58,463 nt of DNA from positions 1 to 58,463 of the forward strand of contig WELA01002258.1 of NCBI GenBank assembly GCA_009602735.1, given 5' to 3'. The notes below the pieces were generated by a model that was not told the origin of the DNA, searched no databases, and was given only the letters and a program-made list of their open reading frames with translations. A program made the position numbers and the translations under genes. This stretch comes from Mesotaenium endlicherianum (Eukaryota). Shown in pieces: positions 16,101 through 50,725 of this stretch. Position 1 is the stretch's first letter; the number at the start of each line of letters is the position of its first letter.

Positions 16101-16537
16101 AGTCAGCAGCAGCAGCAGTAGCAGAAGCAGCAGTAGCAGCAGCAACTCAGCCTCACTCACCATCGGCCAGCACGCATTGGAGATGAGTAAGTCAATGCTC
16201 CCGGGCAGGCAGGGAGAGAGCAACTGACCTCGATGGCATTTACGTAGGGGGTGGAGTCGACAGAGGCGAAGCTGAGGGTCAGATTGGGGCCTGGCACGGT
16301 CGCTACGTACTCAAACTGCTCGTGGCTTGCGAACGCAGATGGGGTGTACGACACTCCCACCTGGCACACAGTCGAGCCAAACCCCACCCGCACCAGCGAG
16401 TTACACTCCGTACTTGCATGCACCTACGCGACAGCTAGGCGCGCGTGTGTTGCCTGTGGCCATGAGCTACTAGCACTGACAGCACTAGTGGTGCAAGGCT
16501 GCCTCTTGGGGGATGCTGGCGTGTAGAGTTGGAGTAC

Positions 16538-16614
<77 letters not shown>

Positions 16615-16615
16615 N

Positions 16616-16651
<36 letters not shown>

Positions 16652-20561: not shown

Positions 20562-20652
<91 letters not shown>

Positions 20653-23374
20653 NTCTTTCCTACGCCCCCTCTCTCTCTCTCTCCTGCTCTTGCTCGGGCT
20701 TCTCTCGATCTTACCGTCGGGAAAGGGATCAAAGACTTGGGGCAGCGGGCTGTGGCGGAACACTTCCAGCGCGCTCAGCAGGGGCTCCTTCACGGGGCTG
20801 GCGGGAGCGTTGATGACGGCGATGGTGATAGTGCTGCTGCCGGTCGCGGCGGGCACGGGCTGCATGTTGAAGTCCAAGAACATGGCCTTTCTGGGGCCTG
20901 CCAGCCGCACCACGTCCAGGCCCGCGTACACCAGCTGCACCCCCAGCCCAGGAGGAGCATGAGCGCGCGCGCGCGCACACGCAAACACACACACACACAC
21001 ACCCCCACACACGGGGGCACCCTCCCCGTCCTCTGACAGACAGCAGAGTAGCAGAGGAGGGGACTCCTGATGCCATGCTGCATACGAGCATATACCCCCC
21101 CCCCTCAGCCCGGAAGCAGAGACGCAGCAGGCGGCCTGTTTCCAAGAAGTAGCAACAGGACCCCCCCCTGCTACCAGAACAATCGGCATGATGAACGCCG
21201 GCGCCGGTTCAGTACACATACACGCACAGACGCACACATACGCACGCAAAATTGAGTGCAGAGAGGGGCACTGAGTGAGTGACAGGCGGGCCGACCTCGT
21301 TGTTGACGTAGATGTTCATGACGCGCTGGCCGGCGGTGAGGCCCTGAATCTCCGCAAAGTGCAGGCGCGCCGTGTGGTAGGAGGCGTCTATCGCAGGCAC
21401 CACGATGTACAGCCCCACGCCCGTCAGGTTCTGCGCCGCGATGGTGGTGGCCGTCTGGAGCACGCGCAGCGGCAGGAAGTCGGGTGAGATGCCCGTGCCC
21501 GCCACCTGGACGGCGGGGCCCACGCGCACGCTGCTGGTGCGGTTGTTGAAGTACATGAGCGGCACGTCGGGCTTCCACGTGCGCCCCTCCAAGTCCAGAA
21601 AGGGAGCGGGGTCGCCGCCCATGTCCAGGCGCGTGATGGTGCGCATCATCATGGGCGTGTTCACGTTGTTGCGGTACAGCCCCGGGTAGTGGCGCGCCAC
21701 CTGTCAAAGTCGGCGGCACAGCAGAGGCGCAGATGATGACATGCGTGACATGAAGGCTGGCGCAGAGGGTCAGAGCAGAGCAGAGCAGAGCAGATGACCT
21801 GCCAGAGGCTGGGGTCTGGCTGTGCTGCTCCCATGCCTGCCTGCATGGCAGCTCCTGCCAGAAGCATGGGCTACAATCGATTTGGTCGCCGCATCATCAC
21901 CATCATCATCATCTTCATCTTCATCTTCATCAGCAGCTGCAGCAGCAACGCTCAAGGTGCATGCATGCAGGTGCCGGCCCACGCTACGCAGAGCACAGAG
22001 CACACACCAACGGAACAATGGAAGGGCACAAGCGTGTGCGCGTGCAAACAAGCGCGCTCACCTCGATGGCGGAAATGTGCATGGCTGCTTTGATGGCAGT
22101 GAGGGACACCACGATGGCGCTGCCGTACACGGGCACCGAGAACTCCACAAAGTATGGCACCGCCGGGTTTGCCACACTGTACGCCCAATACGCCTGCAGC
22201 AGCAGCATCAGCAGCCATGGCCTTTGCTTCAGCACTCGGCCGCAGGAGGAGTAGCTGCACCCAATTAGATGCAACACAGCGCACCCGGTGGCTATCTTTT
22301 CACTTTATGCCTGACAAGTGCAGCTTGCTCTCCTGCTTCCTGCTGCCCTCGCCACTTCATTTTTTTGGGGGGGGGGAGAGGGGGAGGGGGGCACAGCTAC
22401 CGTGAGTCCGTTGATCACGATAGTGAACGCGCGGTCCGAGGTGTTGACATATGTCAGCTCCATGAAGTGCAAGCGCACCTGCTCCACCCCCCCCCCCCCA
22501 AGCACCACCACGTGCATGCATCCAGCCGCACGGTCTTGATGAGGCACGCAGCCAAGATGACAGGAGACTCCTGCCCATGCCGTGCGCACAGCGCCAGCAA
22601 GCATGCATCATTCTCAATTGTACTTCCAGGAGGGCGTTGGCAGTGCCATGTCCAAGAGCCCTCAAGTCCCACCTTCCCCCCCGTGAGCAAGCTTGAGCCA
22701 CTCCCCCAACAATAACACCTGGCTACCAGCACCTCCAGCTGCTCCTTGCTGGGGTCTAGGGGTGGCTGGACCGCGCTGGACTGCATCTGAGCAGATTGCA
22801 TCAGCGGCAGCCACTTCGTCTGACACGTTACGCTGCCCGCATTTGTGAATGGGATGATACAGCTGGCAGCAGCAAGCCCCTTCTTTTCTTTTTCCCAACG
22901 CCCTGCTGCCTTTGAAGCATGCCCTTCCATCGCAGGCAACTCTTTGCCATCATGCGGTACCTCCACAGTTGTCACATCGCAAAGAGTGAGGGCCCGGTGG
23001 GGGGTGCATGCAGCCTCACCCACTCACAGCAGCTGGCAATCTTTGGGGCCAACACCCTCTTAGAGCAGGCTCCATGCGCTGCAGCTGATCCGGCAATTCA
23101 ATTCTCAAGGGTACCATCCCACGGTCAGGGGGAGACGCGCGTACCCAGAAGTAGCCAGGCGCAGCCACCGAAATATTGTAGGAGCCCACATAGTCCGTGG
23201 GGGCCCACTCACGGGTGGTGGCATACAGCACGTTGTCCTGCAGCAGCAGCTGAGCTCCCAGCGCCGTGCTGTTGGCTGGCAGGCCGCCGAAGTAGCTGCT
23301 GTCGGCCGCCCACGTGCGGTTGAAGTGGTCGACAAAGGCGGGACCGCCGCAGTTGATGCGGATGACTTCGCCAT
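8146..23374 (-). CDS. Multi-exon receptor-like Ser/Thr kinase with ~10 tandem malectin domains (CrRLK1L-like); 5' signal-peptide exon not located
   Basis: Repeated exon sets with RINCGG/NVGG, VRLHFAE and P..SAIE motifs from 23374 down to ~10575. TM exon ~10437-10300 ([27 protein letters not shown]). Kinase exons: [15 protein letters not shown] (~10155-9938), [12 protein letters not shown] (~9395-9244), [16 protein letters not shown] (~9080-8935), [11 protein letters not shown] (~8736-8641), last exon ~8517-8146. GT-AG boundaries. Confidence 0.9.
13805..14138. other. Assembly gap (N run) inside a kinase-gene intron
   Basis: N run flanked by poly-G. Confidence 0.99.
16539..16648. repeat. (GA)n microsatellite, intronic
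   Basis: About 55 GA units. Confidence 0.97.
17749..18592. other. Assembly gap (N run) inside a kinase-gene intron
   Basis: N run. Confidence 0.99.
20562..20653. repeat. Poly-C homopolymer, intronic
   Basis: About 90 consecutive C. Confidence 0.95.
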
Positions 23375-25907
23375 CTGGACGTCACCTCCAATGCAATATG
23401 TACAAACTAACTGAAATGAGCAAACAGAGTGTTCCGCAGCTGTTTTTGACCTCTGCACAGTCAACATTGCTCAATGGCTCTCCAGAAAGCACACGCGCCT
23501 CGTTCCTTCCTTCCGTGCTTCCTCGAGATGACAAGCTTCACGACAGCTTGCATCAGCAAACGCTTCCTGAAAAGCAGGCTGCTGCTCGATGCTGCAAGCT
23601 GCTGTGGCGTGTGGGGACCAAGCACTGAAGTGACATGCAGCAGAGGAGGAGGAGGAGGGGAGCATCTGTGCTTGGATTGCCAGTACACGCCACATGCAGC
23701 TTTGATTGCTGACATATCCCGCCGTAGAGAACCTTGCAGCATATTTGAAACACCTCATCAACCTCATCAACAGGGTTGCATCCAATCAGGCAGTACCAAG
23801 CCTGATGAAACTGTCAGACTGATTCTAACCTAGAGCAGCTCAACTTGACCTATACAGCCACGTAGAGCGACTATCTGCCCCTGCTCCCACCTGCTACATA
23901 CGTGTGCCATTCGACTTGCCGGGAAAATGTCCCTCCTGCACTTTGCTAAAAAGTGGAGCCACATGTTCTCCAGTCAATTCATTTCATTATTCACCATGTT
24001 CAGTTTCTGTACTGTCCTCCTACTTGCTGTAAGTCTGTCATCTATGCCCTTACCCTCTTTGACTCTAATTGCGTTAATGTCAGGGCCCACTTTATCACCT
24101 AAACCACTCAACAAGCCAGCATAGCAGCTAGTCTATACACACGTGTTTTTTTTGATATCCGTACTCATGTTCAAATTATTCAAAAAACGCCCGCTCAATC
24201 ACATAGACGGCTGGTATTTAAGGGTGGAGCCGCTGAAGGCACTTCAACTACATAGCCAATTCCGCTTCAACTTTAAAGACCCTGCAGCTATGCAGCCAGT
24301 CGGGGCATTCAAGGCGGGTACTATCCTGGAGAGGCTTGCATCTTGAGGAGGCGAATGTGCTGGTGAAGGGAAGCTTGCGACAAGCTGGAAACTCATTCTG
24401 AAGCAAATCACCTTCTTTCGACATAAAAAAGTGCTTTTTGTTTTTCATAGCTTGGCCTGGACTGTACAATACGAACTACGAGAGCCTTGATATCAATCAC
24501 ATGCATTCTCAGCAGACATGCGTTTACCTGAACTTTCGCCATTAACGGCTACAAGCAGGACGATGAGAAGCCAGAATGAGCACGCGAAGTGTCCGCGCTC
24601 CATAAACCTCATGTTGGCAATCTACTCCATAGAAGTTTCTTGCCGAGGCATCACGAATAGAGTGCAGCACGACTGTACGAGGCAAGGCATTCAAACTAAA
24701 CTGACGACGAGCAACTATATGAATCTCATAGTCGAGGATTGGAGCAGACAAGACCTGATGTCAATCACCAATTGCAGGCGTATGAAGGCCCGAGCTCTTG
24801 AAGACGTAGCCGACCTCGGAACTCGTACGCGTGAGAGCACTGAGAGGTGAGGATACAAGAGTGGTTTCCACTACAGAGTAACTGGGAACTGACTTGGACA
24901 GGTATGTGGGCAGGCCCCGGGGGGCGATGGTTGACGAGAGTTGACAACGCTGTCACTGTTGTGCACTTGAGACAAAAGAATATCAGATTGCAACTCAATA
25001 AAACAGGCCAGCCGCCCGTGAGCCACGGCCTACTACAAACAACTGTCCATAACAGTCCACAACAGCTCAACAACGGGTTCACAGACCACTTCTTCGTACA
25101 GCCGACCTTGTTAAACTGCTGCATGTAGGCTGCATGTGCAGGAAGGCGTTTGTCCGCTTCTGTCGTCATCCAAAGGGGCGGTAGCAACTTCTCTTTTTCT
25201 CTAGCAGATTAAGAAGCATTTTGACCAGTTCAGTGTGGTTTAAGATAGCTTACAAATATCAAAAAAGGGCCTTCATATATCGTTTTCTATACCGTGGTCG
25301 AAGAGGCATCGATCCAGCTGCATCCGAGCAGCGCTTCACAATACTTGCGACGGTTCACGTGATGGATCATGCTACCCGCTTGCAAACTTCTGTCAGACTC
25401 ATGTTGGGAGCTGCTGAAGCAGCCGAGAGCAGCTGAGAGGGATTGTGGGCTCTAGCATGGGGGGGTGCCTTCAGGAATCCGGGTGACAGCGCCCAGAAGT
25501 GTCGATTTCACCGCTAATTTACTTACTTTTGCTTTTTCCCCAATTCGACCCTTCTATTTTCCCACTAAAATTTCTCGCCATGTTTCACCGTGATTTTTGA
25601 ATCTCCTCCTTTTTAGTCTCTCGTTTTTGGCATGTAAAACCACCCTGCGAATTTGCATCTTGCCCTCTAATCTCTTACCTCTTTTTCCATCACCTTCCCG
25701 TCTATATTTCGACGCTACTTTACTTACTTTTCCTTCCCCAAATCTCCCTCTTAAGTTTCCCACGTGTTTTACCGTTATTTCCGGGTGCCATATCTCCCAA
25801 ATGACCCCTCCCTAGATTTACAGTCTTTGCCCTTACCATCATATTCCCCCAATTATTTTATGTATTCCTGATCTTTCCCCAATCCTTCACCCCATTACCC
25901 CAATCAC

Positions 25908-27133
25908 TGTCGCGACTATTATCCGTTTGACGGTGTCGCACGCGCAGCGTAAGCTACGGCCACCTAGTGCTGAAAGTCAACATTGACTCACCGACCACTT
26001 GACTAATTACATCGCAGTTAGCGGTTATGGCGGCGTCAAGACCACTGGCAAGGGGTCAATGTCAGTGTGCCCCACACCCACGGATGGGGGAGGTTTTGAC
26101 AAGACAGCCGCGAGGCTAGGAGTTGGGGATCAGCAATGAGCCGCCCAGCAAGTACCAGGTCAGGTACTGTGTGACTGGCAGATTAAGCCAGGTCATGGCT
26201 ACAATGCCAAGATAGGTTACGGCCGCCCGGTTGGGAAAACTTGAGCAAGTGGCATTTGCTTGCACGCCGCTCAGGAATTCTTAGCCATGAGCCAATTAGG
26301 CGTGACTGCCAGCTGAGAAGCTAAGCAGCCACGCGCGACAGTCACAAGGTGTGCATGCATGCTGAGTGACTACGAGTTTGAGTTGAGCATGGCTAGGCAG
26401 AAGCGACATGCAGCTAAGTTGTGTGACTAAGCACGGCATTCTCGAAAGATGACGCTGTGTGGTGCCTGCGAAAGGCACGAATCTTGCCTGAGACATGTCA
26501 TTCACTCTCACGCACCTTTGCCAAGAGGCAGAAGGAAAGAGAAGAAGGGCGCGAAGAAGAAGAAGGAGTTCCCAAGGCCATTGGAGGGCCAAAGCCCCAC
26601 GCTTCTGACGACGCTGAAGATTCTTCTGTGTATCATAGATAAGTTAGGATTGTAGGAGTTCCCAAGAGGGAATCTCACGGTTGAAGAAGGAGAACTGCAG
26701 AATAGAATCTGCTAGGAGATTAGCACAGAGTCAGCCGAACGCCACAAGTGTGTGTGTGAAGCAGCCTTAAAATGGTGAGTTGTGTGTTGATTTCCAAGTT
26801 CTCAGAAGTTGCATTCGCATCTCAAAGAGAGAGAGCAGTATTGACAGATAAAGCTCTCAGTGAAGAACTGAGTGAGCCCAGCCTGGCAGTGAAGAGCTGT
26901 TAAGGCGCGGTGTCAAGTGAAGAGCTTGACCCAGGCCAGCATAGACGTAGTTTCAGAGTTTTGTAAGCTGACTTGTGGAAGTTAAGCGAAAGCCTAAAGG
27001 GCGATTTTCTCTGGATCTGACGTTGCATGTCAAGCTGTTTAGAGTGTGATTTCTGCAAATTACAATTTGCTCACCTGTGAATCCAAGAACCTTAAGGGAT
27101 AAAGCCTATGTGGAAGTAAGAGACTTCCGTCCT
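25908..27133 (+). repeat. Terminal repeat X1 (1226 bp)
   Basis: Near-identical to 37210-38435; diverged homologue at 39878-41100. Confidence 0.95.
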
Positions 27134-27155
27134 ACTTCTGAGAACTTTAGTTCTG

Positions 27156-27166
27156 TGGTTCAGGTG
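27156..27166 (+). promoter_or_regulatory. Candidate primer-binding site TGGTTCAGGTG
   Basis: TGG-initiated, ~22 nt after X1, conserved in copy 2 at 41122. Cognate tRNA not identified. Confidence 0.4.
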
Positions 27167-27249
27167 AATAGAAATTCCCAAGCAAATTGGGGATTGAGGC
27201 CTGTGAGGGCTGCCGGTGCTCAACCTGGAAGGGGACCCGGAGAAATTCA

Positions 27250-28860
27250 ACTGTACATGCAATTGAGGAGTAGAAGACTCTACTACCCTGTGGAGCCTGC
27301 GGAAGGTTCTGATTCAAGCTAGAGTCCACGAGAAAGTGAGACACCTGAGCACACGGATAACCCGTGGAGTGAGCAACCATCGAGAGACGAGTCTCGCCAT
27401 ACTGCCACGAACGGTGAGAATCCGTATAACGCGCGAGCTTTTGTACCCAATTTGGGCAGAGAGCACGACGTGTGGGATAAAGATAGTGAGTCTTGGTCAC
27501 CACTCGAAATGACTGGTGATGATGAGGATGAAAATCCTTAGTTCAAGCTGTCTACAAAGTATTTTAGTGGACGAACCAGTGGAAATAGTCTCATTTTTGA
27601 AGAGTTTGATGAGATTTATTGGGCTAACTTCTTTGAGAAAATCCGAAAGGATTCTTCTTACACTCAGTCAGTCGCTTTTATAAGCTTGGTTCAGTACTTG
27701 GACAAGGATGCCTTGTTGCTGTATCGCCAATTTCGGAAGGATGAGAACCTTACCCAGGAATGAGCGTTTGACGAGCAAAAGAAGGCGAGAGATTTGAAGA
27801 TCCAGAAAGAGGCTGCGAAAGCCCGCCTGTCCGCTTTGTCATCAGGAAGAGCGATACTTGCTGCACCTGTTGAGAGCGTAGACTTAGTTGCACTAACACA
27901 AGAATTAACAGATGCCATGACGCAACTCACCGAGGGTCAGCAGCGAGCGGCTACTCGAGATGATGATGCTGGATCTGTCGCAGAATTGCGTAAAGTGTGT
28001 GCAGAATTGTCTGAAAAGATTGCTAATGCTCAGGAACGAGTAACACGCAGAGCTGCACCTTTTACAGGGCAGCATGGTGATAGTGTCACCACGGAAGCAA
28101 GCCATGCGCAAGCGTTGGCTAGTTGCCGTAGGGATATGGAGGCTGGGGATGACCAGTTAGACTCTGAGCACTGTCTGCGTCGTTTCTTTAAGTTGCTTGA
28201 AGCAACATTCCCAGAGGATCGCAGTCTTAAAGTGCACCGCTATGTGCATTTTGTCCGTCAGAAGAACGAGATAGTGATGGAGGTCAAATCCAGATTGGTA
28301 GACCTTGCCAAGAAGGCAGGAATCTATGAGCCTAAAATTGTGGCTGACAAATTCTTATTGTGTCTAGGTAAAGACACAGATCGGGAGGTCAGGCCGCACC
28401 TATCTGCGAAACGCGGAATCGACTGGAACATCGACGAGGCTGCCGAAATAGCACGCAATGTCGAGGAAGGTAAAGTCTGGTACAAGGAGGCTTCCAAGGC
28501 GCTTATGGCTCCTGAGAGAAGGGAGAAATCCTTTCAGCCCAGGACAATAGCTCTAACTTTCAGTTTAAGAAAAAGAGCAGGTCTTTCAATAGGTTTGCTA
28601 AGCACGCCAACACTGCTGAGACAGCAGAGGGCTGTTGGAACTGCGGGAAATCAGGACATCAGAAGAGAGATTGTCCGTACTCGGATGCTAAGCAATTGTC
28701 TGCTAGCAAGGCGCAGGTATGCGCACACTGCAGTAAAAAGGGACACTCAGAAGATGAGTGTTGGTCCAAGAACCCAAATCTGAAACCACCATGGGCTAAT
28801 GCTGCCACGAAAGAGGCGGATAAGGGTAAGAAACGGGAGAAAGACAACTCTGGTAACCGG
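27250..28860 (+). pseudogene. gag of B copy 1 with two CCHC zinc knuckles
   Basis: CWNCGKSGHQKRDC (~28633) and CAHCSKKGHSEDEC (~28719). Stops and frameshifts. Homologous to 41160-42804. Confidence 0.8.
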
Positions 28861-31316
28861 AAGGGTAATCAGAAGTATGATGCTATGAGTGCAGAGATTG
28901 CAGAGTTTAAAGCTCAATTTGCAAGACTAAATGTGCCTAATGTCTATTACGATGCAGATGTGGCCGAAAAGACCGTCTGCAAAGGCAAGAAGCTGACGCC
29001 TGAGAAGGTCGTGGCTGCAACGGCTGCGGAGCGCGCAGATCATGACCGTCTGGTTCCAAGGAATGCTGGGAAGCTTCCTCAGACCTTTCGGATCACTCTC
29101 GATGAGAACGAGATTGGGCAGCTACGACAAACCAAGCCTGGGCCACGCAAGACATTTAGTTTTTCGCTGGAAAAGCTGAAAGCTCTGGTGGAACACCGGA
29201 TTCAGCACATTCCTTGTCTTTCACTCGCTGATCTGCGTCTTACATACCCTTTCACGATTGAGGAAGCCGGACAGCAGCTGGACCTAGCTGAGGAAGGCGC
29301 TAACAGCGCTTCGCTGTCTACTAATTTCAGCACTGTGAGAGTGCAGCACAAGGATAGAGTTTTGACGTTTAACAACTGGGCCGCTCCCAATATCCTATTG
29401 GACACTGGCGCACAGCCAGTAATCTTGGGAAAGCGAGCTGTGAAAGCTCTGGGATTGACGGCGAGGGACCTGAAAGAAAGTCCTTTCCAGTTGAGGACTG
29501 CAATCACCCGCAAGCCTGTGGATATCACAGTAAACGTGGGGAAACCTGAGGAAGCGTCACTGTTCATAGAGTGTACGGTGACAGAGGCAAAAAACTATGA
29601 TGTTCTATTGGGGACAGAAGCTCTGATTCCCCTGGGTATGGTCATCGACCTGCGGAAGCAGAGGGTGACTTACCAGTCGACAGATTGGCAGCCGACAGGA
29701 GAAATTCCTGTAAAAATGGTTTGCTCGGGAGAAGCAAACTACGGACTGCTAGACTGCTATGTGAATGACCAGTATCCAGACCATTATGACCTCATCATGC
29801 AACGCGAAGAGAAGATCTACACCAGCATCAACATGTCGACTCCCTTGGTTTGGCAACCTTGGATTATGGAGCAACTAGAAGCTGTGAGTAACAGGGACCG
29901 TGGCCCGCAAGAGCTGCTGCCAGTTCCTTATCCAGTTAAGACTGCTGCCAATTTGATGCCTGGAGTAGACCCATTGCCGCAAGGCATTGTGAGGATGGAA
30001 GATTCTTTTCGCAGGAGAGGAGTAGTAGTGCTGGAATTGTTCGCCGGACTTGGTACCGGAACCATCGCACTGATTCAACGAGGTATCCGGGTATCCAAAG
30101 TGCTGTATGTGGACAATGATGAGAATGTTTTTACAACATTTGAGGAGGTCATGAGTCAGATGCGGCAAATGTACCATTTCAAGGCATTGGTGCCCACTAG
30201 TGTGGTGCGTCTTGTTGGAGGAAACATTCTCGATGTGAAGTCTGAGGACCTGTATGGTTACAAGATTGACTGGATTTTTGCGGGATTCCCTTGTCAACCT
30301 TTCTCGCAAGCTGGGAACAGGAGGAGATTCAATGACCCGCGAGCACAACACTGGGGAAGGATGGTGAAGATCATCAGTATGCTGCGGGAACGCCAGCATC
30401 TCTACCCACCAGTGTTTGTGATTGAGAATGTACATCCGAGGATGGATTACAACCAGATGAAGCCAGGAGATCCATGGCTGGTCTTCGACTCCACCCTGGG
30501 TCATCATGTATTGATCAACGACGCCAGGCACGGAGGACTCTCACACCGAGCCAGACTATTCTGGACCAACGGCATGTCCATGAAATCCTGAGGGAGATGG
30601 AGGAGATTACGCGGCGCCCGCCAACGGCAGTATCTGTGGGAGAAGCACTGATGGTGGAAAACAAGCCAGTGATCAGGAGGGATTCCTACCCACAGTACGT
30701 CGTCAACGAGCCAGGCCGGCCGAGAGTGGTGCTGCCCACCTTCACGGCATACCTAGGATCACGCGCTTTCGTGAATGGAGGACCAGGAATGGTCAAAGAT
30801 GTGCACGACAGAGAAGCTCAGTGGAGAGAGCCGACAGCTGAAGAGAAGGGAAGGTGCCTGGGGGTACCCAACTCCATTGCACAAGAAATTGTTGCAAAGG
30901 TGGGACAGGACAACGCTGGGAAGATATTCGGCAATATGATTGGGCATCACTCCATGACATGGTTGGTAGAGACGATTATGACTTGGCAACAAATGACAAT
31001 CTCTGACAAGCCTATGCCCAGGCCGAGGCCGGTAACGATTGGAGTCCATGTGGTGCCAACCTCTGATCAGAGAGCTATCAGGGAAACGTATCAGCGACAA
31101 AAAGAATATGCTGTTGAAAGAGACGCAGCTGAGACTGACCAAGATGAAACACTCAGAGAAACCAGAATGGTGGAGCTGACCAGGTGTCAAGACATATTGA
31201 CGCGAATTGACACTCGGATGGCGGCTCTACACGACCCTCTGGAAAGAGAGCTGCGGAGGCTGCGAGAAGACGTAACCATGGAAGACGGGCAACTGGTGCA
31301 GCAAACCCTTTGGTGA
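28696..31316 (+). pseudogene. Protease + DNMT3-like methyltransferase of B copy 1 (one frameshift ~30580)
   Basis: LLDTGAQPV; LELFAGLGTG; IDWIFAGFPCQPFS; VIENV; SHRARLFWTN; after the shift LPTF, REPTAEEKGRCLG, IFGNMIG. MTase spans ~30022-30990. Confidence 0.92.
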
Positions 31317-33046
31317 GCGCTGCAGTAAGAAAATCACAGGAGGTCCCAGCATCTGCAGAACGCTCCAGCCAAGTATTTGGGAGGATGCCGGAATGGGACG
31401 AATATACCAGTTCCGAGTTACGAAACATGGCCCCAGACCAGGTCTTCGGGAGCCCATCCCCAGACGCGGTAACATCAAGATATGAAGAACGCCAGTGCAA
31501 TATTGGCAAATGGGCCGAAGAATGCAGTCAGAATTCAGGAAATTCTGGAGGGTCTGGAAAGACCATTTGCCTGGAGGTGATTTTTGAAGAACACAAGAAG
31601 GAGACGGCCAAGAGATTGCCCGCCACACTTGCTCTGATGAGCCCAGAGCCAGAGGCCAAAGGCCAACCACAAGACACAGTTGGCAGCACAGCTGAGTCGA
31701 TCACCAGGCAAATCATGGCGCAGTTGCTGGAAGCAGACGTCCCTCGACTCAAGGAAGAGAAAGTGGCGAAAGCAGCTCTCGCTCTACAGTCAGCCATCAT
31801 CAACATGGCGAGGCTCAACACAAGAGGGGATGAAGAATTGCCGCCTCCTGGAACAGAGAAGCCGGAGGAGGAAGAGGATGCGGAGATGCAAGGCCTCTCG
31901 GAGTTGGACTCGCCATCACTCAACAATGAAGGGGACATTAGGGAAGAAATTCCACGTTTTCCCACGCCAGACTTGGATCTGCTTGACTTACAAGAGCTGA
32001 GGACAGACGACTGGGTGGCTGACCACCTGATGGGGCCAAGCCCGGCAGACCTTTATGAAGAATTAAGGTCGCCAACATCCAGTTCTCCTTCTGCCAGTCT
32101 TCCAGTGGCAGAACCCAAGTCAACCGCACAACCGCCGCAACGGCAGGAGGTGACTGCCTGCACTGCTAAAGTGGAGACAGCACAAGGAAAGCCCGAAAGT
32201 CGCGCAAGCAGACCAAGGAAGGTGGCCCGTGAGGGTAACGCATCTTTTAGGAGGATGCTAAAGCGATATTTCAAGCATAAGGGGAAGGCTCAGAGAGAGG
32301 GCGTTCCGCGAGGAACCACAGCCCCACCTCCGCCGCCTCTGCGGGATATTTTGCAGAGAGAGGGAGAGGACGGTTTGGTTCGCAGGGCAATGGCATTGGG
32401 CATTAGTGTGCCGCCAGGCATGAACACGCCCTTGTTGCAACTATCAGATCTTAGGATACAGAGGTCGAAGGAGCCTGCTCCCAGGTTACCTGCAATCCCA
32501 GGATGGAAACTGATGGATCTGAGAAACACCATCAGTTGCTGGACCGCAGCAGATGATGCCTTTCTTGCACAACTAGCGGCACCTCAAAGGCCGCAAACAT
32601 TGGCGCAGGCATGGATGATCACACCACCCGCAAGGGAGGAGTATGGCACGACCGTTGCCCGCATGGCTATTATTGAGCGAGAATGGGGCTGGGCGATCAG
32701 CCCTAGGACAGATCCCGCAGGTTTCCCAATGGCAACCCAACCTCGGCCACGTGAAGAAGGAGGAACCGGGACCAGTTGGACTGCAGTCGACGAGGAAATG
32801 TTCCTGAGGCAACCCATCCGGAGGCGCCTGACATACCCCTCAACGCAGGAGAGGCAACGCGTCATTGGGAAAGGTAAAAAGCCTAAGAAATAGGCTGCCG
32901 AACTTATGGCGACGGAGGAGCAAGCTGCAAAGCCTGCTACCCCACCTCCTAAGAATCAGGCAGAAAAGTTTGAGAGCCAGAATCAGGCAGAAAAGCCTGA
33001 GGGCCAGGATGAGGGCGGGAAGCCCCCACCTGCACCTAAGGAGTAG
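31310..33046 (+). pseudogene. Long Pro/Glu-rich linker of unknown function between DNMT and RT, ending at a conserved TAG
   Basis: ORF 31310..32893 continues in frame to TAG 33044-33046. Peptides EEIPRFPTP.LDLL.LQELRTDDWVADH and IEREWGW are shared with copy 2. Confidence 0.7.
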
Positions 33047-34646
33047 AAACTACTCGATGCCTTTGTTGGGGAGAAGCAACCTGAAACTGAGACTTTTGCC
33101 ATTGGGAAAATGGTCTCAGCCCAACAGAGAGCACAAGTAGAAAGGTTGCTGAAGAAACACCGCAAGGTATTTGCTTTCACTAAGGAGGAGATTGGTAGAA
33201 CCACTGCCAGTGAGTGTGAGATCACACTAACTACTGATAACCCAGTTAGACTAGGGCCGCATCAGCTCAGTCAGACAGAATGGGACTGTGTGGAGAAAAC
33301 TTGTGAAGAGCTGCATAAGCTCCGCATGATTGAAAAATCTACCTCAGTACATGGGGCTTCTACAGTAGTAGTTGCTAAAAAGGACGAGGCCGGCAATTAC
33401 ACTGCCACTCGTATGTGTGGAGATTACAGGCGACTGAATCTCTACGCGGAGCCAGATAGCTATGTGATGCCTACGTCGGAAAGGATCTTTGCAAATGCCA
33501 CCATCGGAAAGGTGTTCAGCATTATCGATCTGCGCCAAGGCTTCAACCAGATCCCTGTGAAAACAGAAGATCGAGGTAAGACTGCTTTCTGGGCTCAAAG
33601 GGAACTTTGGCAATGGACAGTAATGCCATTTGGGCTGAAAAATGCCCCAGCCATATATCAGAGGACTATGGATAAAGCGCTGGAGGGGCTGGATTTCGCT
33701 AAGCCATACATTGATGATGTGGTAGTATTCAGCAAGTCCATAGAGGAGCACCTCGAGCACTTGGAACAAGTGTTCCAGCGCTTGGAGAATTTCCAGATGA
33801 AGCTTCATCCTGGGAAGTGCAGATTCTTTGAGGCACACGTGCCTTACCTAGAACATGAGATTGAGAAAAATGTTATGTCCCCTCAGGCTGTGAAGACTGA
33901 AGCTATCTACAAGATACCTGCACCTGCGAATGTGTCTAAGCTGAAAGCTCTGTTAGGGCTAAGCGGATACTATCGTAAGTTTGTGAAGGATTATAGCAGA
34001 ATTGCTAAACTCTTGACGGAACTCTTGAAAAATGATGTACCTTTTGTGTGGACAGAAGCTCAGGAGAAAGCCATGAACGAGCTTAAGGAGCGGCTGGTAA
34101 CAGCCCCAGTCTTGCGAACGCCTGACTACTCCAAATTGTTCAATCTGCACACCGACTGGAGTCGTGTGGGAATTGGCGCAGTACTCACTCAGGCCACAAG
34201 CCCTAGAGAGGAGTATGTCATTGCCTATGCCTCACGCTCTAACAATCGAGCGGAGAGCAACTACTCGTCCTATGAAGGAGAGTTGCTGGCAGTGATTTGG
34301 GCGGTCACACATTTCAGAGAGTATCTGTGGGGAAGACCCTTCACACTGATCACGGATCACTTACCATTACTATGGCTGATGAAGAATGGAGACCTCACTG
34401 GTAAGTTGGCTCGCTGGGCTCTTAAGCTGCAAGAGTACCAAATGACAGTGGTGCACAGAGCAGGAGTGCTCAACAACGACGCCGATGGACTCAGCAGGAA
34501 CCCAGACCCATCTTCAGACGACAGAACAGGAGCTCGAGAGGACAAAGACCCGAGCAGCCCAGCAGAGTTGGTGGCTTGTCTAGCCGAAATGGCTGGAATA
34601 GTAGCATCAAGTGAAGCTGAGCCTCTACCCCTATTCAGTCCAGAGA
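33047..34646 (+). CDS. RT + RNase H of B copy 1
   Basis: RMCGDYRRLN, IDLRQGFNQI, MPFGLKNAP, YIDD, HTDWSRVGIGAVL, AYASR, ITDH. Open through the RNase H until the solo-LTR insertion. Confidence 0.93.
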
Positions 34647-35391
34647 TGTAAGGTCATAGGTTTATAAAGTGCATTTTTTGAGTTTCATAAAATTATGTTT
34701 TGATTAACCATTCATGTAGAGTGCATTTTTGTGGTCATTTTGATATAAAGTTCATTGAATTTGGTCAGGTATTGAGAGAGTTACGGATTTTTGAAGTTTA
34801 ATTAGTTTTGAGGTCGGTTGACGACTGTCCTTAATTCGCGCTGAGCGCGACCGTCGGATTGACCGACAGCGTCGAGCGATCTGGCCCGTTAGAATGAACT
34901 CGAACCTTCACGTAAGTTCGGCTGACGCGGAGTGCCGACTAGGTCGATTTACCTAAAAGTTTCGGTCTAGCCTAGCGCGTCTAAGATAGAATATTCTAGT
35001 AATGTCGATGCATGTATGTGGACGTCAATTCGGCCCGACACGTCAAATTAGACTGATCTGGCTTACTCACGAATATTCTGGAAGGGACGATTTGACGAAC
35101 ACTTAGGAAAATCCGTAGCTTCCTCCTGGAGAGGAGCACTTAGGCAGAAAATCATAAATAGGCATAACTTCTTTGTTTCTAAGGAGTTCTCACTTCTGTA
35201 AATTTCTACGGGTTTGTAATGACAAGGCCTTTCATCCTACATCATTTGTGAGCAGTTTCTTGCCACTCAAAATGTCAAGTAATTTTCCTAAGCTTTCTTA
35301 GCAATATGCCGCTGCACTCTTGAGTATGATTGCAACTAGCTTTGTTCCTCGTGAGTCACTACGCTTCCACTAGGGCACTCTGCCCCTTTCA
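34647..35391. mobile_element. Solo LTR (745 bp) inserted in pol of B copy 1
   Basis: TGTAAGG...CCTTTCA termini; 5-bp TSD AGAGA at 34642-34646 and 35392-35396. Copy 2 has the empty site (ccagagatctgg). Confidence 0.9.
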
Positions 35392-35396
35392 AGAGA

Positions 35397-36856
35397 TCTG
35401 GAAAGATCAAGCTACTATGCACTCGCTGAAGACGGGAACTCACTTGGAAGGACTATCAGTGAAGGAGAAGGACCAGGTAAACCATCGAGCTAAAAGGTTT
35501 TGCTGGTAATGCAACAACCTCTTCAAAATTGAAGAAATCGGTCAGGAGAAGTTAGTGCCAGAACCCATCAGGAGACGAGCCCTTATGCAAGAAATGCACG
35601 AGAACACTGGACACTATGGTGTCAAGAAGGCATATAGTCTTTTGGAGCTGTCTTACTGGTGGAGGGGCATGAAGCAGCAGTATGAAGATGTGATCAAGGC
35701 CTGCCAAAGCTGTAATCGCATCAAGGCTGGTTTTACACAGCAACATCCACACTTGCAACCTTTGCCGATCATGGGCCTAGGCTACCGTTGGAGCTGCAAT
35801 CTCGCAGGTGAGCTACCGCTGTCTAAGCGAGGTAACAAGTATATCATGGTCATGATTGAGCATTTCTCTAAGTGGATAGAGGTAGTCCCTCTGACTGCTA
35901 AGGAGAGTCTAGGGACCGCGGAAGCGTTCCTCAATGGTGTGATTGTGCGTCATGGAGCTCCAGCAGAAGTGCTGACAGACCAAGGGTCTGAGTTCCAAGG
36001 GTCTTTTCAGAAACTCTTGGACAGATGCTTCATCGATCATCGCACTACGTCTAGAGATCATCCGCAAGCAGATGGTCTCGCAGAAAGGATGGTGCAAACC
36101 ATTAAGTCTGCTTTGCGCAAGTTTTGCCTTGAGCATGACAAGCGTGACTGGGATCTAGCCCTGCCATGGCTGGTTATGGGTTACAGATTTAGCAAGCAGG
36201 CTGCCTTGGCAAATTACTCGCCACATCAGATACTGTTTGGCAGAAGTCCAGTAGTGCCCAGCAGCATCAAGCAGGAGATTGAACAGGTGAAAGACCTGGA
36301 TAGCCCTGATGAACTGTTAAAAGTGATGATGCGCCGTAAGGCGCCATTTGAGCGCATGATACCGGCTGCACTAGACAATTTAATAATTGCACAGAAAAGA
36401 GATACGCAATGTTACGCCACGACGCGAGACGGGAGCTACCACATGCAGATGACGCGAATTCAAGAAGGAGACTTTGTCTACCGCAAGCGCCAGACCAAGA
36501 CCACCATCGACACTAGTTCAGGTGCAATGATCTTGCGCGTGAAACATGCGTTTGACAATGGTGTGTTAGAACTGGAAGGTTCTGATGGTAAAACCATGAG
36601 AGACCACGTGCAGAATTGCTCGCTATGCCATTTGCCGAATATCGATCCCACAGTTAGGGTTGTGCCCAAGGAATTGGTGCCGGCCACGCCTTGTGCCAGC
36701 TGCAAAGTGCTGGACGATCAGGAAGCAATGGTAACTTGCTATAAGTGTGGTGCCCGTTGGCACACTTTCTGCATTGGCGAGGAAGAAATTATGGCAGGAC
36801 GATGGGAATGTCCTGATTGCCTTCCCAAAACCCCTAGCCGCAGGGCTGGAAAATAA
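35397..36856 (+). pseudogene. Integrase with C-terminal PHD finger, B copy 1
   Basis: HENTGH..CQSC; first catalytic D reads N (WSCNLAG), then LTDQG and ADGLAER. PHD CASC..CYKC..HTFC..WECPDC at ~36691-36820. Confidence 0.9.
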
Positions 36857-36891
36857 TAGCTTTCAGCAGGAAAGGCAGGGACGCCTCAGCT

Positions 36892-36903
36892 GAAAGGGAG
36901 GGG
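36892..36903 (+). promoter_or_regulatory. Polypurine tract
   Basis: gaaagggagggg directly before TGTAAG at 36904. Confidence 0.85.
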
Positions 36904-37207
36904 TGTAAGAGGAATTAAGGCAAGACAAGTATTTTTTAAATTTTCTGCTAAAGTCTTAGAATAAGCAGATGGTGAGAGCCGGGTGACAGAGAACGTCACC
37001 CTGAGTGTTGGTCAAGGCTGCATGGTGCAAGTTCTAGAACCCAGGGATGGGTTAACCCTGGTAAGGCTTGTCATCGACACACGTGCAAAGGTCGATCGAC
37101 CATGTCTGCCACACGTGAAGAGGGCCACCGACACATCAACCAGGCCAAAGGCACACGTGCTGGAAGGCTACGCACGTGCCGAGGGACCGACACTGTTAGG
37201 CACAACA
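36904..37207 (+). repeat. Repeat Y1 (304 bp)
   Basis: Near-identical to 38436-38739. Confidence 0.95.
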
Positions 37208-37209
37208 GC

Positions 37210-38435
37210 TGTCGCAACTATTATCCGTTTGACGGTTTTGCACGCGCAGCGTAAGCTACGGCCACCTAGTGCTAAAAGTCAACATTGACTCACCGACCAC
37301 TTGACTGATTACATCGCAGTCAGCGGTTATGGTGGCGTCAAGACCACTGGCAAGGGGTCAATGTCAGTGTGCCCCACACCCAGGGATGGGGGAGATTTTG
37401 ACAAGACAGCCGCAAGGCTAGGAGCTGGGGATCAGCAATGAGCCGCCCAGCAAGTACCAGGTCAGGTACTGTGTGACTGGCAGATTAAGCCAGGTCATGG
37501 CTGCAATGCCAAGATAGGTTACGGCCGCCCGGTTGGGAAAACTTGAGCAAGTGGCATTTGCTTGCACGCCGCTCAGGAATTCTTAGCCATGAGCCAATTA
37601 GTCGTGACTGCCAGCTGAGAAGCTAAGCAGCCACGCGCGACAGTCACAAGGTGTGCATGCATGCTGAGTGACTACGAGTTTGAGTTGAGCTTGGCTAGGC
37701 AGAGGCGACATGCAGCTAAGTTGTGTGACTAAGCACGGCATTCTCGAAAGATGACGCTGTGTGGTGCCTGCGAAAAGCACGAATCTTGCCTGAGACATGT
37801 CATTCACTCTCACGCACCTTTGCCAAGAGGCAGAAGGAAAGAGAAGAAGGGCGCGAAGAAGAAGAAGGAGTTCCCAAGGCCATTGGAGGGCCAAAGCCCC
37901 ACGCTTCTGACAACGCTGAAGATTCTTCTGTGTATCATAGATAAGTTAAGATTGTAGGAGCTCCCAAGAGGGAATCTCACGGTTGAAGAAGGAGAACTGC
38001 AGAATAGAATCTGCTAGGAGATTAGCACAGAGTCAGCCGAACGCCACAAGTGTGTGTGTGAAGCAGCCTTAAAATGGTGAGTTGTGTGTTGATTTCCAAG
38101 TTCTCAGAAGTCGCATTCGCATCTCAAAGAGAGAGAGCAGTATTGACAGATAAAGCTCTCAGTGAAGAACTGAGTGAGCCCAGCCTGGCAGTGAAGAGCT
38201 GTTAAGGCGCGGTGTCAAGTGAAGAGCTTGACCCAGGCCAGCATAGACGTAGTTTCAGAGTTTTGTAAGCTGATTTGTGGAAGTTAAGCGAAAGCCTAAA
38301 GGGCAATTTTCTATGGATCTGACGTTGCATGTCAAGCTGTTTAGAGTGTGATTTCTGCAAGCTATAATTTGCTCACCTGTGAACCCAAGAACCTTAAGGC
38401 ATAAAGCCTATGTGGAAGTAAGAAACTTCCGTCCT
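37210..38435 (+). repeat. Repeat X2 (1226 bp)
   Basis: Near-identical to 25908-27133. Confidence 0.95.
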
Positions 38436-38739
38436 TGTAAGAGGAATTAAGGCAAGACAAGTAGTTTTTAAATTTTCTGCTAAAGTCTTAGGATAAGCAA
38501 ATGGTGAGATCCGGGTGACAGAGAACGTCACCCTGAGTGTTGGTCAAGGCTGCATGGTGCAAGTTCAGGAACCCAGGGATGGGTTAACCCTGGTAAGGCT
38601 TGTCACCGACACACGTGCAAAGGTCGATCGACCATGTCTGCCACACGTGAGGAGGGCCACCGATACATCAACCAGGCCGATGGCACACGTGCTGGAAGGC
38701 TACGCACGTGCCGAGGGACCGACATTGTTAGGCACGACA
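38436..38739 (+). repeat. Repeat Y2 (304 bp), right terminus of the element
   Basis: Abuts X2 directly; ends GCACGACA. Confidence 0.95.
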
Positions 38740-39877
38740 CGAATGGTGTCAATATTGACAAAATATGTGATTTTATTTTTTTTTTGCAATTTTTGTATCG
38801 TCTTTCCAATTTTAATCTTAGAAGGAGCATTTGGATGAGCAATATTACGAGTCGGCAAAGTGAATTGGCCCTTTTGGTGGCTTCAATCATGAATTGAAAT
38901 AATAAATATCAATTCATGGTATGGAATAAAAGCTATGTGCTGGTGTCTTTTGCATTGTCCAAAGACTGTCCTCATCGCAAGTACCTTCATATTCAATAAT
39001 TGGTAAATTTTTGACAATGCCTCCTTTAACCATGACCACAACAAGCTTTGGTCAATTGTGCCCCTGTCTTAAGATTGTGTATGATAATCTCATTTTTGTT
39101 ACTTAAATGTTTGGTAAAGCCCAATGATATGGAAGTTGCATGCTCTTGGTGAATTGTTCATGCTTGGTTGCATAGTAACCGAAAATGTTTACTTCCCACG
39201 CTTGAGCAGACGTCGATTCATGTACTTTGCCACACGCTTGCACGTTTTCTCCCGTCGGGACACGTGACGGGTCCTGACGGCAGTCCCCGGTTATATGTCT
39301 CTCGTGCTTGTAACGACCAAGATTGACCACAATGCGTTTCGTGCCACGGCTGGACGCACGCTCTTGAACAATTTTGGTCAAATTGGTCAATTCCTCGTCG
39401 CAGCTCGTGGTGTAGGCCGTCCGCTGGAGAGCGAGAGGTGCGAACACTTGCATTAGTCGAGTGGGCAGCATGGCGAGTGAAAGGAGGCAGGAGGGGCAGC
39501 GACGATTTTGAAGGTTTTTAGCGGGGAATTCGACCCGAAAAGGGGAAGCTGTTCGTTGGAGAAGCAGCCCACCTGAGCTGTGCGGAAAGATGGCGGAAGC
39601 GAGAAGATAGAAGATTGTTTCAATGAAGGAAAAAAGAATTTATTTGTAGAATATCGAATAAATATACAACGGTTTTGGACGACTTATATAGTCATTGTCT
39701 TTAACGGGCAAAAGGTTAACGGTCGTGTAACTTAAGCTATTCTAGAATGTAATGTGGCGCGTTCTACTCTAGATGTCGTTGGTGAATTTGCCTCAGGTAG
39801 TCGTTGAAAGATTATGCTATAGAAGACGTTGACTAATTATATCCTTGTATACTAGAAAATAATTATTATCCAAGCAC

Positions 39878-41100
39878 TGTCGCAATTGCTATCCACTTGA
39901 CGGTGCCGCACGCACAGCGCAAGCCACGGCTGCCCAGGTACAGGAAGTCAGTGGTGACTCACCGGCCAAAGGACCGAGTTATCTCAGTCAGCGGTCATGT
40001 CAAAGTCGTTAACATTGTCAAAGTGGTCACGACACGTCAAACCCACACCCAAGGATGGATGGGGATTTGGACGGAGTAGTCAGCCGAAAGGCTAGGGGTA
40101 TGGAACCAGCAAGTGCCCGGAAAGGTACTGATCAATTGGCTATCTAAGCCAAGTACAACAGGGATGTTGCAGAGGCGCTGTGTGCCACCTCGGCCAAAAC
40201 CCTCAAGTGACTAGTCACGGCTTGAACGTTCATCCAAAACGTCGCCAGCCAGCCACATAGGTATGATTGTCAGCTGAAAGGCTAAGAAGTCACGCGCGAC
40301 AATCCCAACGCATGCATGCATGCTGAATGACAACTCCTAAGCTGTGTGAGAGCTGCTAGGTAAGGACGGCATGCAAGCTAAGCACTGTGACTACGGACTG
40401 GCATTCTCGAAAGAGGATAATGTGTGGTGCCTGTGAAAGGCACGAGTCCTGCCTGAAGGTGCCTCATTCTTGCTCGCATCATTGTCAAAGGAAGCTCAAG
40501 GAGCAGAAGGAGCACAAAGAAGAAGGAATTCCCAAGGCCATAGAAGAGCCGAGACGCCACGCTTCTACTGACGCTGGAAGATTTCTTCCTAAGTGTATCA
40601 TAGAAAGGTTAGACCTCAGGACTTCCCAAGAGAGGACCTCGCTGGTAGAAAGTAGAGAGTTGCAGAATAGAATCTGTTAGGAGATTAGCACAGATTTGGG
40701 TCAAACGCCACATGAGTGCGAAGGTCACTTAAAATGGTGAGTGCTGTGTTAGTTTCCAAGTTCTCAGAAGTCTCAATTGTTGAATTGCTGATAGCAAGAG
40801 TAGTCTTAACGAGTAAAGCTCTCAGTGAAGAACTGAGTGAGCCCAGTCGAGCAGTGAAGAGCTGTTAAGGCGCGGTGTTGAGTAAAGAGCTCAGACCAGG
40901 CCAGCATAGATGTGCAATTTCAGATTTTTGTAAGCTGTGACTTGTGGAAGTTAAGCAAAAGCCTTGAAGGGCGATTTTCTCTGAATGCGGCATTGCCTGT
41001 TAAGCTGCTTAGACGTGATTTTTGCAAACCACAAAACTTGTTCATTCTGTAAACCCTCAACTTGGGTGAAAGCCTGTGTGGAAGTAAGACGCTTCTGCCT
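39878..41100 (+). repeat. Terminal repeat X homologue of B copy 2
   Basis: Shares blocks with X1 (e.g. aagctctcagtgaagaactgagtgagccc) and the same first base. Confidence 0.85.
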
Positions 41101-41159
41101 TACTTTTGAGAACTTGTTGATTGGTTCAGGTGAACAAGAATTCTTGAGTCAATTGGAGA

Positions 41160-42804
41160 TTGAGGCCTGTGAAGGCTGCCGGTGTTCAACCTGGAAGGGG
41201 ACCCGGAGAAATCCAACTGTATATGCGGTTCAGGAGTGGAAGACTCTACCCCTCTGTGGAGTCTGCAGAAGGTTTTGATTCTAGCCAAAGTCCACCAGGA
41301 GGTGAGACGTCTGAGCATACTGACAAGCGGTGGAGTGAGCAACTGTCGAGAGACGAGTCTCGTCATATCCCCGCAAGCAGTGAGAACCCGGATAACACAC
41401 GAGCTTTTGCACCTGATTTGGGCAGAGAGCAAGACGTGTGGAGTAGAGTTAGTGAGTCCTCATCACTGTTCGAAATGGCCGGTGATGATCGGGATGAAAA
41501 TCCTAAGTTCAAGCTGTCTGCAAAGTGTTTTAGCGGACGAACCAGTGGAAACGGTCTCACTTTCGAAGAGTTCGATGAGATCTATTGGGCAGAATTCTTT
41601 GAGAAGATTCGGAAAGATTCTTCTTATACGCAATTTGTCGCATTTATAGGCTTGGTTCAGTACTTGGACAAGGATGCCTTGCTGCTATATCGCCAATTTC
41701 GAAAGAATGAGGATCTCACCCAGGAATGGGCATTTGGAGAACAAAAAAGGGCTAGGGATTTGAAAACCCAGGAAGAGGCTGCGAAAGCCCGAATGTCTGC
41801 TTTATCTTTAGGAAGAGCAGTGCCAATTGCACCTGTTGAGAGCATAGACTTAGCTGCACTAACACAAGAATTAACAGAGGCCATGAGGCAACTCGCTGAG
41901 GTTCAGCAAAGGGTTGCTACTCAGAACGATGATGCCGGCTCTGTCGCAGAATTGCGAAAGGTGTGTGCAAAATTGTCTGAAAAGATTGCTGAGTAACACG
42001 CAGAGCTGCACCTCTTTAGGGTCAGCAAGGCGATAGCGCCACGACAGAGGCAAGCCATGCGCAAGCCTTGGCTAGCTGTTGTAAGGACATGGAGGTTGGG
42101 AATGACTAGCTAGACCCCGAGCATTGTCTGCGTCGTTTCTTTAAGTTGCTTGAAGCACAATTCCCAAAAGATCGCAATCTTAAGGTGCACCGTTATGTGC
42201 ATTTTGTCCGTCAGAAGAACAAGACAGTCATGGAGGTTAAATCCCGATTGGTAGACCTCGCCAAAAAGGCAAAAAATACGAGCCCAAAATAGTGGCTGAC
42301 AAGTTTCTGTTGTGCTTGGGCAAGGAAACAGATCGTGAAGTCAGGCCACATCTATCCGCAAAGCACGGGATTGACTGGGACAGCGACGAGGCGGCTGAAA
42401 TAGCACGCAATGTTGAAGAAGGTAAAGTGTCGTACAAAGTGGCTTCCAGGACGCTTATGGCTCCTGAGAGGAGGGAGGAATCCTCTCCGTCTAAGGCCAA
42501 CAGCTCTAATTTTCAGTTTAAGAAAAAGAGCGGGTCTTTCAATAAGTTTGCTAAGCATGCCAACACTGCTGAAACAGCAGAGAGCTATTGGAATTGCGAG
42601 AAATCAGGACATCAGAAGAGGGATTGTTCGTACCCAGATGCTAAGCAACTATCTGCTAGCAAGGCGCATATATGTGCACATTGCAGCAAGAAGGGACACT
42701 CAGAAGATGAGTGCTGGTCTAAGAACCCAAAAACCGCCATGGGCAAATGCTGCCTTGAAAGAGGCAGGCAAGGAAAAAAAGAAAGAAAAGGGTGGCAAGG
42801 GTAA
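41160..42804 (+). pseudogene. gag of B copy 2
   Basis: ORFs 41160..41996 and 42292..42804; zinc knuckle CAHCSKKGHSEDEC. Confidence 0.8.
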
Positions 42805-49814: not shown

Positions 49815-49971
49815 AAGAAGACATATAGTCTTCTAGAGCTGTCTTACTGGTGGAGGGGCATGAAGCTGCAGTGTGAGGATGAGATGAAGGCCTGCAAAAG
49901 CTGCGATTGCGTCAAGGCTGGTTTTACGCAGCAACACCCACACCTGCAACCTCTGCCAATCATGGGCCTAA

Positions 49972-50691: not shown

Positions 50692-50692
50692 G

Positions 50693-50706: not shown

Positions 50707-50725
50707 TTATCACAGTCTTCTTTGT

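Follow-up and report, generated by a model that had tools for sequence, protein, structure and literature searches.

How does a Ty3/Gypsy retrotransposon with a DDE integrase come to lie in a chromosome with its long terminal repeat (LTR) split and permuted? This question is raised by an element at positions 25908–38739 of contig WELA01002258.1 of Mesotaenium endlicherianum (assembly GCA_009602735.1), the whole 58,463-nt stretch of which is referred to here as the window, and the element as the window copy; features lie on the plus strand unless stated to have no strand. We consider it very probable that its attachment site is internal to the LTR and is used by the DDE integrase. On balance we also favour, as somewhat probable, the fuller reading that the window copy is a decayed Ty3/Gypsy element whose DDE integrase would cut a palindromic junction inside the LTR after head-to-tail joining of the complementary DNA (cDNA), the insert being a circular permutation of a two-LTR provirus.

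Self-comparison of the window established the order X1-internal-polypurine tract (PPT)-Y1-GC-X2-Y2, in agreement with the initial annotation in all coordinates. X1 (25908–27133) and X2 (37210–38435) differed at 29 of 1226 bases (97.6% identity), and Y1 (36904–37207) and Y2 (38436–38739) at 13 of 304 bases, with no indels in either pair; Y was absent from the rest of the window. The PPT (GAAAGGGAGGGG, 36892–36903) adjoins Y1 directly. At the Y1/X2 boundary (37203–37214, no strand), which is the predicted integrase cleavage site, the Y1 end CAACA and the X2 start TGTCG are parted by the spacer GC, and X2 ends in CCT and runs straight into the Y2 start TGTAAG at 38435/38436, a head-to-tail joint of the two predicted cDNA ends (38433–38441). 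The window copy begins with TGTCG, after ATCAC, and ends with CGACA, before CGAAT, so that X1 starts with the left attachment half and Y2 ends with the right one. That these termini are the two halves of the internal palindrome had also been proposed, and this stands. In most contigs of the family both 37204 and 37216 are G, so that the Y/X junction is usually a perfect palindrome, as in the annotated consensus. A second, diverged copy (39878–49970; 71–79% DNA identity over long blocks) begins at the equivalent base, after GCAC, with the same left terminus and self-primer, and it has no Y upstream, as annotated; it is truncated in the integrase and carries a TG...CA insertion of its own (48927–49814).

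The LTR as defined by reverse transcriptase (RT) could be predicted from the two priming sites. The 14 bases after X1 (27134–27147) are the exact reverse complement of 26796–26809 inside X1 (14/14, reached in 0 of 300 shuffles). The former is the putative primer-binding site (PBS), predicted to set the right end of the cDNA, and the latter the putative self-primer and predicted transcript 5′ end, as in the Tf1-type self-priming that is listed for Tcn1 and TAR elements (PMC6317226; here and below, papers are cited for the accessible parts of their text). Priming by tRNA was rejected, with no TGG after X1 and no tRNA gene in the window. Self-primer complementarity is retained at 12 of 14 bases in the diverged copy. 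Among the relatives described below, 12 of 13 copies of one family have their best self-priming site 120–132 bases upstream of the X end (11–13 of 14 paired), L036 pairs at 14/14 with a different sequence, and a fourth sequence provides 13 paired bases in L081 and 16 in L001; the pairing is thus preserved across four different sequences, the window copy and three further lineages. A G-rich tract adjoins Y in the relatives as well. Because the self-priming site adjoins X1 and the PPT adjoins Y1, the RT-defined LTR is predicted to be Y+X, as had been annotated, with Y as the upstream part of its U3 and X as the downstream U3, R and U5. The PPT would mark the left end of the cDNA, which is predicted to read Y-X-internal-Y-X and to lack CA at its right end.

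The coding part of the window copy matched Pfam families for zinc knuckle, protease, C5 methyltransferase, RT, RNase H, rve integrase and PHD finger, and the order protease, RT, RNase H, DDE integrase fits Ty3/Gypsy. A Gag-like frame without Pfam match, named for its position upstream of the zinc knuckle, is broken by frameshifts (27764–28783). The zinc knuckle, aspartic protease and C5 cytosine methyltransferase are spread over two frames (28516–31316; PF00098, PF13975 and PF00145, the last with E 8e-18, together with motifs), followed by a 560-aa low-complexity frame with no credible family (31211–32893), by RT and RNase H (33047–34651; Pfam, RT tree), and by a DDE (rve) integrase with an H2C2 zinc finger and a C-terminal PHD finger (35510–36856; Pfam, alignment). 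The methyltransferase, which sits between protease and RT, gave only weak matches to M.HaeIII and M.HhaI among solved structures, and a search with its region was empty. RNase H and integrase are parted by a nested 745-bp TG...CA insertion (34647–35391, no strand) with a 5-bp target site duplication (TSD) AGAGA, likely a solo LTR of another high-copy element, and read joints skipping 750 bases as well as loose ends were observed there. Judged from its sequence, the window copy is dead: it has frameshifts, this insertion, and an integrase that has lost the first acidic residue of the catalytic triad. The chromovirus test failed, the integrase being followed by a PHD finger rather than a chromodomain and the RT standing apart in the tree from that of the chromodomain element of the window. 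Going by its domains and RT, the window copy is a Ty3/Gypsy element close to KnitGypsy-Dnmt3 of Klebsormidium nitens that fails the test of two LTRs.

A DDE integrase is the only integration enzyme that had been noted in the window copy, and our scan agreed: no tyrosine recombinase was found by Pfam in 133 of 133 six-frame open reading frames (ORFs) of at least 45 aa of the window copy, nor in 99 ORFs of the relatives L075 and L036, nor in 14 of the 40 frames listed for L081, which looks intact. This bears on a cycle of the PAT/Ngaro type, in which the RNA would extend from X1 to Y2, the X|Y joint would be inherited, and a circle would be inserted by a tyrosine recombinase that the element encodes or receives in trans. 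The repeat order is indeed that of PAT, Ngaro and VIPER, whose split repeats accompany a tyrosine recombinase (PMC6681497), and the window copy has no TSD. However, neither the ORFs scanned (window copy, L075, L036 and part of L081) nor the PBS and PPT, which stand at retroviral positions, favour such a cycle, and the DDE triad is intact in most relatives.

The relatives were the best 80 of 576 metagenome loci from an integrase alignment (42–54% identity), to which two genome-bin loci (L081 and L082) were added. With X or Y units of L075 and L036 as queries, 68 of the 80 gave a match; of the 12 others, 11 stop no more than 212 bases from the integrase, while L001 is a further lineage. Y-X-Y followed the integrase in 36 of the 68 (28 distinct flanks) and a single Y ended the element in 28 (25 distinct flanks; loci L005–L079), the remaining 4 being cut off or holding solo X-Y. 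A canonical LTR pair was found in none of the 80 loci, Y-X followed by flank in 0 of 36, and Y ahead of the 5′ X in 0 of the 14 distinct copies whose 5′ end was visible. The test of two complete direct LTRs at the insertion ends thus failed in the window copy and in all informative relatives, each being permuted, and the layout, annotated as unlikely to be a one-off, proved to be the rule in the clade. Among the 14 complete copies, X-internal-Y-X-Y was observed 8 times and its mirror product X-Y-X-internal-Y not at all, and all 11 loci seen twice had the same form in both contigs. L065 and L070 show Y-X-Y with most of X2 missing, alike in two contigs. No relative was found among viral contigs (15 pattern matches, none related).

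The internal junction was conserved as well. All informative termini were TGTC and GACA or decayed versions thereof, and the Y1|X2 spacer was exactly 2 bases in 30 of 30 rows, a further 6, duplicate or deleted, having been set aside (GC 8, AC 11, GT 5, AT 3, other 3; GC or its C-to-T/G-to-A decay, 27 of 30). L001, L081 and L082 carry the same Y/X junction, which in L082 is perfect with Y1 identical to Y2 (106/106). The frames of L081 are long and open, its methyltransferase and RT parts being separated by one stop. The junction GACA-GC-TGTC is kept in four distant lineages, in which X ranges from about 290 to 1226 bases and Y from about 105 to 304, and which are scattered over one RT clade with a support of 100/100. 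This clade also includes sequences from Klebsormidium, Closterium and Pleodorina, the last a chlorophyte (P0231), and integrase relatives came also from Calypogeia and Riccia. P0229, which has PF05869 and a PHD finger, is placed outside the RT clade. L081 and L082 are young clade members in a bacterial genome bin, likely eukaryotic contamination; a 127-base terminal overlap of L081 was rejected as evidence of a circle, as a collapsed repeat gives the same.

A 4-bp TSD was found in 12 of the 14 complete relatives (8 perfect, 4 with one transition), with varied sequences and a chance estimate of about 1e-13 to 1e-11; therefore a DDE integrase is indicated. The absence of a TSD that had been annotated holds for the window copy and not as a trait of the group: the window copy is a member of a TSD-less minority. 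It is perhaps a recombinant of sister copies, the product of a terminal deletion or an assembly join; its empty site was not found, and sequencing runs X5 and X8 (run labels, as is X2 where so stated below) had no coverage of the flank. Short overlaps C, AC and CAC were rejected as TSDs, the relatives having 4 bp and free target sequence. Both copies in the window are preceded by CCAA(T/G)CAC (25900–25907 and 39870–39877, 7/8 match); the relatives showed no such preference, and CAC as a target of the family, suggested by the CAC that the initial annotation noted before both copies, was dropped.

Regarding the single-Y form, X-internal-Y was the structure of all 6 loci that include the 5′ end, and 5 of these 6 have a 4-bp TSD, perfect or with one mismatch; three single-Y loci recur in two contigs with the form unchanged. 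X-internal-Y could originate from inserted one-LTR circles, from double cuts, or from recombination between Y1 and Y2. A solo X-Y with TG...CA ends and a 4-bp TSD CAAT (L022:6131–6610) resembles an ordinary solo LTR, yet it contains a ragged X|Y joint.

The X2|Y2 joint itself, likened in the initial annotation to a two-LTR circle junction, does look like a freshly made end-to-end joint. In the largest family of relatives, the X1|internal boundary was uniform in 12 of 13 copies, and of 23 X2|Y2 rows 9 had the modal form, 5 a two-base AT overlap and 9 other forms, most joints varying by just 0–2 bases. The joint differed from the copy's own X1 end in 3 of 7 copies, and in L011, L047 and L051 the last base of the own PPT is present at the joint. 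In addition, the Y1–Y2 distance was 0.087 within a copy versus 0.12 across copies (n=18, permutation p 5e-5), and the X1–X2 distance 0.113 versus 0.189 (n=7), with no alignment column typical of the first or second repeat position. The raggedness of the joint and the likeness of Y2 to the Y1 of its copy suggest that X2|Y2 is likely formed anew with every insertion. Neither the raggedness nor the pairing of Y within copies fits an inherited joint, and varied 4-bp TSDs with CA/TG termini do not fit a tyrosine recombinase; a cycle of the PAT/Ngaro type is accordingly very improbable.

Read data address the question whether the arrangement is an artefact or a one-off, that is, whether Y2 was created by misassembly or by a local duplication, or X+Y is an ordinary LTR whose 5′ copy was partly lost. 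Assembly gaps in the window and the missing TSD of the window copy could be cited for it. On the other hand, the joint of the X end to the Y start (27133 to 36904) was present in contigs of 4 out of 4 runs (3 samples, 3 studies, 2 organism labels), with joints one base longer on either side also present in the window's family in the deepest sample. In sequencing run X2, 33 contigs exit the element right behind the Y end (37207) into unrelated flanks (agreement 0.4); sequencing runs X1 and X2 may derive from the source material itself. The copies of the host were judged from read contigs rather than from a whole-genome census; for the left terminus the evidence is that of the two window copies and of the relatives, no loose end before 37210 or 25908 being among the read-contig matches listed. 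Given that the layout recurs in four lineages, that the 11 twice-seen loci agree, and that the PBS adjoins X and the PPT adjoins Y, we regard an artefact as hardly credible, and the misassembly of Y2 that the initial annotation had named as its possible refutation was not what the reads showed.

In the cycle that we favour, transcription is predicted to begin inside X1 at about 26796 and to finish inside X2, and Y2 would then lie outside the RNA. Three poly(A) runs with the same species label gave 34, 120 and 27 reads on 36700–38480, mostly over X2, in one direction and thinning past about 38260 in 2 of the 3, which fits an end inside X2 and is too thin to count; no site at which many molecules start or stop was seen on 36700–38480 in these three thin runs. 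Ordinary reverse transcription, self-primed behind X1 and plus-primed at the PPT, would produce the cDNA predicted above, whose right end offers no CA to the integrase. Host end-joining would link both cDNA ends into the ragged X|Y joint, the integrase would place a nick after CA in each strand of GACA-GC-TGTC and so create 2-base overhangs like those of processed retroviral ends, and insertion would generate a 4-bp TSD as in the relatives. The upstream of the two junctions would be used, likely because it is finished as a duplex earlier, which is an added assumption. One-LTR circles, or cuts at both junctions, would yield the common X-internal-Y form.

Several points weigh against this reading. 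No circle or cDNA has been observed, and the transcript ends are predictions. The window copy has no 4–6 bp TSD (flanks ATCAC versus CGAAT), and two of the 14 complete relatives, L011 and L062, have none; TSDs and junctions were counted on short-read contigs of another host, the best 80 of 576 loci, at the integrase identity given above. The own Y2 was the nearest neighbour for just 8 of 18 Y1 copies, subfamily structure can inflate the Y1–Y2 pairing test, and inheritance may account for some of the short duplications close to the X end, one of which L052 carries at X1. Finally, a finished circle with two equal junctions predicts an equal share of the mirror product, which was seen 0 versus 8 times (2^-8 = 0.004), so either a bias for the upstream junction or another order of steps is needed. 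The circle-based integration proposed initially thus stood as regards its non-canonical termini at an internal junction, and fell as regards a plain two-LTR circle opened at either of two equal junctions, which was rejected with 0 mirror products in 14 complete copies.

One such other order is that cutting comes first and joining later. The integrase would cut the upstream junction of the linear cDNA and insert both halves, leaving the RT-made ends open and requiring no circle; the host would mend the X//Y break by end-joining, giving X-internal-Y-X-Y, or by annealing of Y1 and Y2, giving X-internal-Y. The same termini, TSD and ragged joint are expected, early binding explains the use of the upstream junction, one route leads to both forms seen at 28 and 25 distinct flanks, and a break at insertion could also give TSD-less copies. 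However, a short Y stub must remain in the complex, the chromosome is broken at each insertion, most joints vary by little, and every step of this order is one that we infer. We consider it unlikely, while deserving attention.

Alternatively, the joint may be made by RT itself, jumping end to end from the right to the left cDNA end and recopying Y, which would produce Y-X-internal-Y-X-Y(-X). RT can jump end to end on short overlaps. Cuts at junctions 1 and 3 of this product would give the full form, at 1 and 2 X-internal-Y, and at 2 and 3 solo X-Y. This predicts exactly the forms found, including the solo X-Y with 4-bp TSD in L022, and the absence of X-Y-X-internal-Y, and the AT overlap at 5 of 23 joints would fit as well. 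Overlap and extra bases are, however, equally normal for host end-joining, repeat recombination can also make solo X-Y and X-internal-Y, and each junction must be cut on both strands yet yield one half only. We hold a joint made by RT to be a rather improbable explanation.

Taking these results together, with head-to-tail joining before integrase cleavage as the preferred reading, an old green-lineage Ty3/Gypsy clade has probably moved its attachment sites to a palindrome pre-built in the LTR. It would insert only via head-to-tail joined cDNA as its normal cycle, one-LTR circles included, and would converge on the split repeats of PAT/Ngaro without a tyrosine recombinase.

The repeat layout itself is not unrecorded. 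KnitGypsy-Dnmt3 of K. nitens has Gypsy domains and DIRS-like repeats (A-coding-B-A-B) according to the legend of Fig. 4c of de Mendoza et al. 2018 (PMC5890265), so that the statement of the initial annotation that A1-B1-A2-B2 repeats do not characterise Ty3/Gypsy does not hold as an unrecorded fact. Common to both elements are the repeat order and a polyprotein with the Gypsy domains plus a C5 methyltransferase, and K. nitens proteins are among the relatives (integrase with 46% identity; a PHD-bearing RT, P0234, on a long branch in the same clade). KnitGypsy-Dnmt3 differs in host and family, and was likened by its description, not by its published sequence. The accessible text of PMC5890265 contains nothing on termini, TSD, priming or route, and its supplementary correspondence nothing on the route; the figures could show termini. 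Streptophyte Gypsy-DNMT3 elements are mentioned, and their repeats are not, in the accessible part of a preprint (bioRxiv 10.64898/2026.05.21.726589). In the literature searched, which left aside Repbase Reports and most subscription journals, we found the term 'split LTR' applied to no gypsy retrotransposon and, in the parts accessible, nothing on termini, palindrome, TSD, self-priming, the single-Y form or the route.

With canonical Ty3/Gypsy elements, including the self-priming Tf1/Sushi/Tcn1 and the non-chromovirus Phygy and Selgy (PMC6317226), the window copy and its relatives share the order gag-protease-RT-RNase H-integrase, the PPT, a self-priming site, TG...CA termini and, in the relatives, a 4-bp TSD. 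They differ in that the attachment sites lie inside the RT-defined LTR and the inserts lack two full LTRs, because of which surveys by LTR pair, such as that of PMC6317226, would miss permuted copies. PAT, Ngaro, VIPER, TATE and SymbioDIRS-Dnmt3 (PMC6681497, PMC5890265) have in common with them the order A1-coding-B1-A2-B2, solo A-B remnants and a likely joined-end intermediate, whereas those elements have a tyrosine recombinase in place of the DDE integrase, protease, Gypsy RT and TSD found here. In retroviruses, too, a DDE integrase can cut a palindrome made of two attachment halves, as HIV-1 integrase does internally at the palindromic two-LTR junction (PMC1905944). As far as described, the retroviral palindrome arises when the cDNA ends are joined, and it serves a side route, whereas here it is encoded within the LTR, apart from the end joint, and is seemingly the only route. 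Cleavage of two-LTR circle junctions by integrase has reportedly been studied in foamy virus as well as in HIV. Insertion sequences of the IS3/IS30 type form circle junctions of two ends with a 2–3 base spacer, and here again a DDE enzyme acts on abutted ends; these are, however, DNA transposons whose junction is made by the transposase rather than encoded.

In the textbook view, LTR elements and retroviruses insert from the processed ends of linear cDNA, and circles are dead ends. A natural clade whose RT-made ends lie apart from the ends used by integrase separates both steps, and an LTR-LTR-type junction as a normal substrate becomes testable; it also suggests how an ordinary LTR can give rise to split direct repeats. 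Permuted elements are invisible to tools requiring an LTR pair and TSD, so that annotations of algal and bryophyte genomes likely list too few of them; solo X-Y remnants would pass as ordinary solo LTRs.

Other elements were also present in the window. A third element that belongs to the same RT clade and is rich in GC occupies positions 1–7200; it has methyltransferase-like motifs, a PHD finger and a G-rich PPT near 7190, but no Y-X-Y repeat; its 5′ end lies outside the window, and CATGACA at 7671–7677 may be its right terminus. The insertions at 34647–35391, which is very high-copy, and 48927–49814 are unrelated to each other, have TG...CA ends and 5-bp TSDs (AGAGA and AAGAA), and are likely solo LTRs, each inside the pol of a permuted element. 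Fragmented minus-strand exons at 8100–23500, judged by eye, resemble what we take to be malectin-type receptor kinase genes. At 50678–58463 lies a chromodomain-bearing Gypsy element with a second pol copy behind it (89% identical) and no LTR pair in view.

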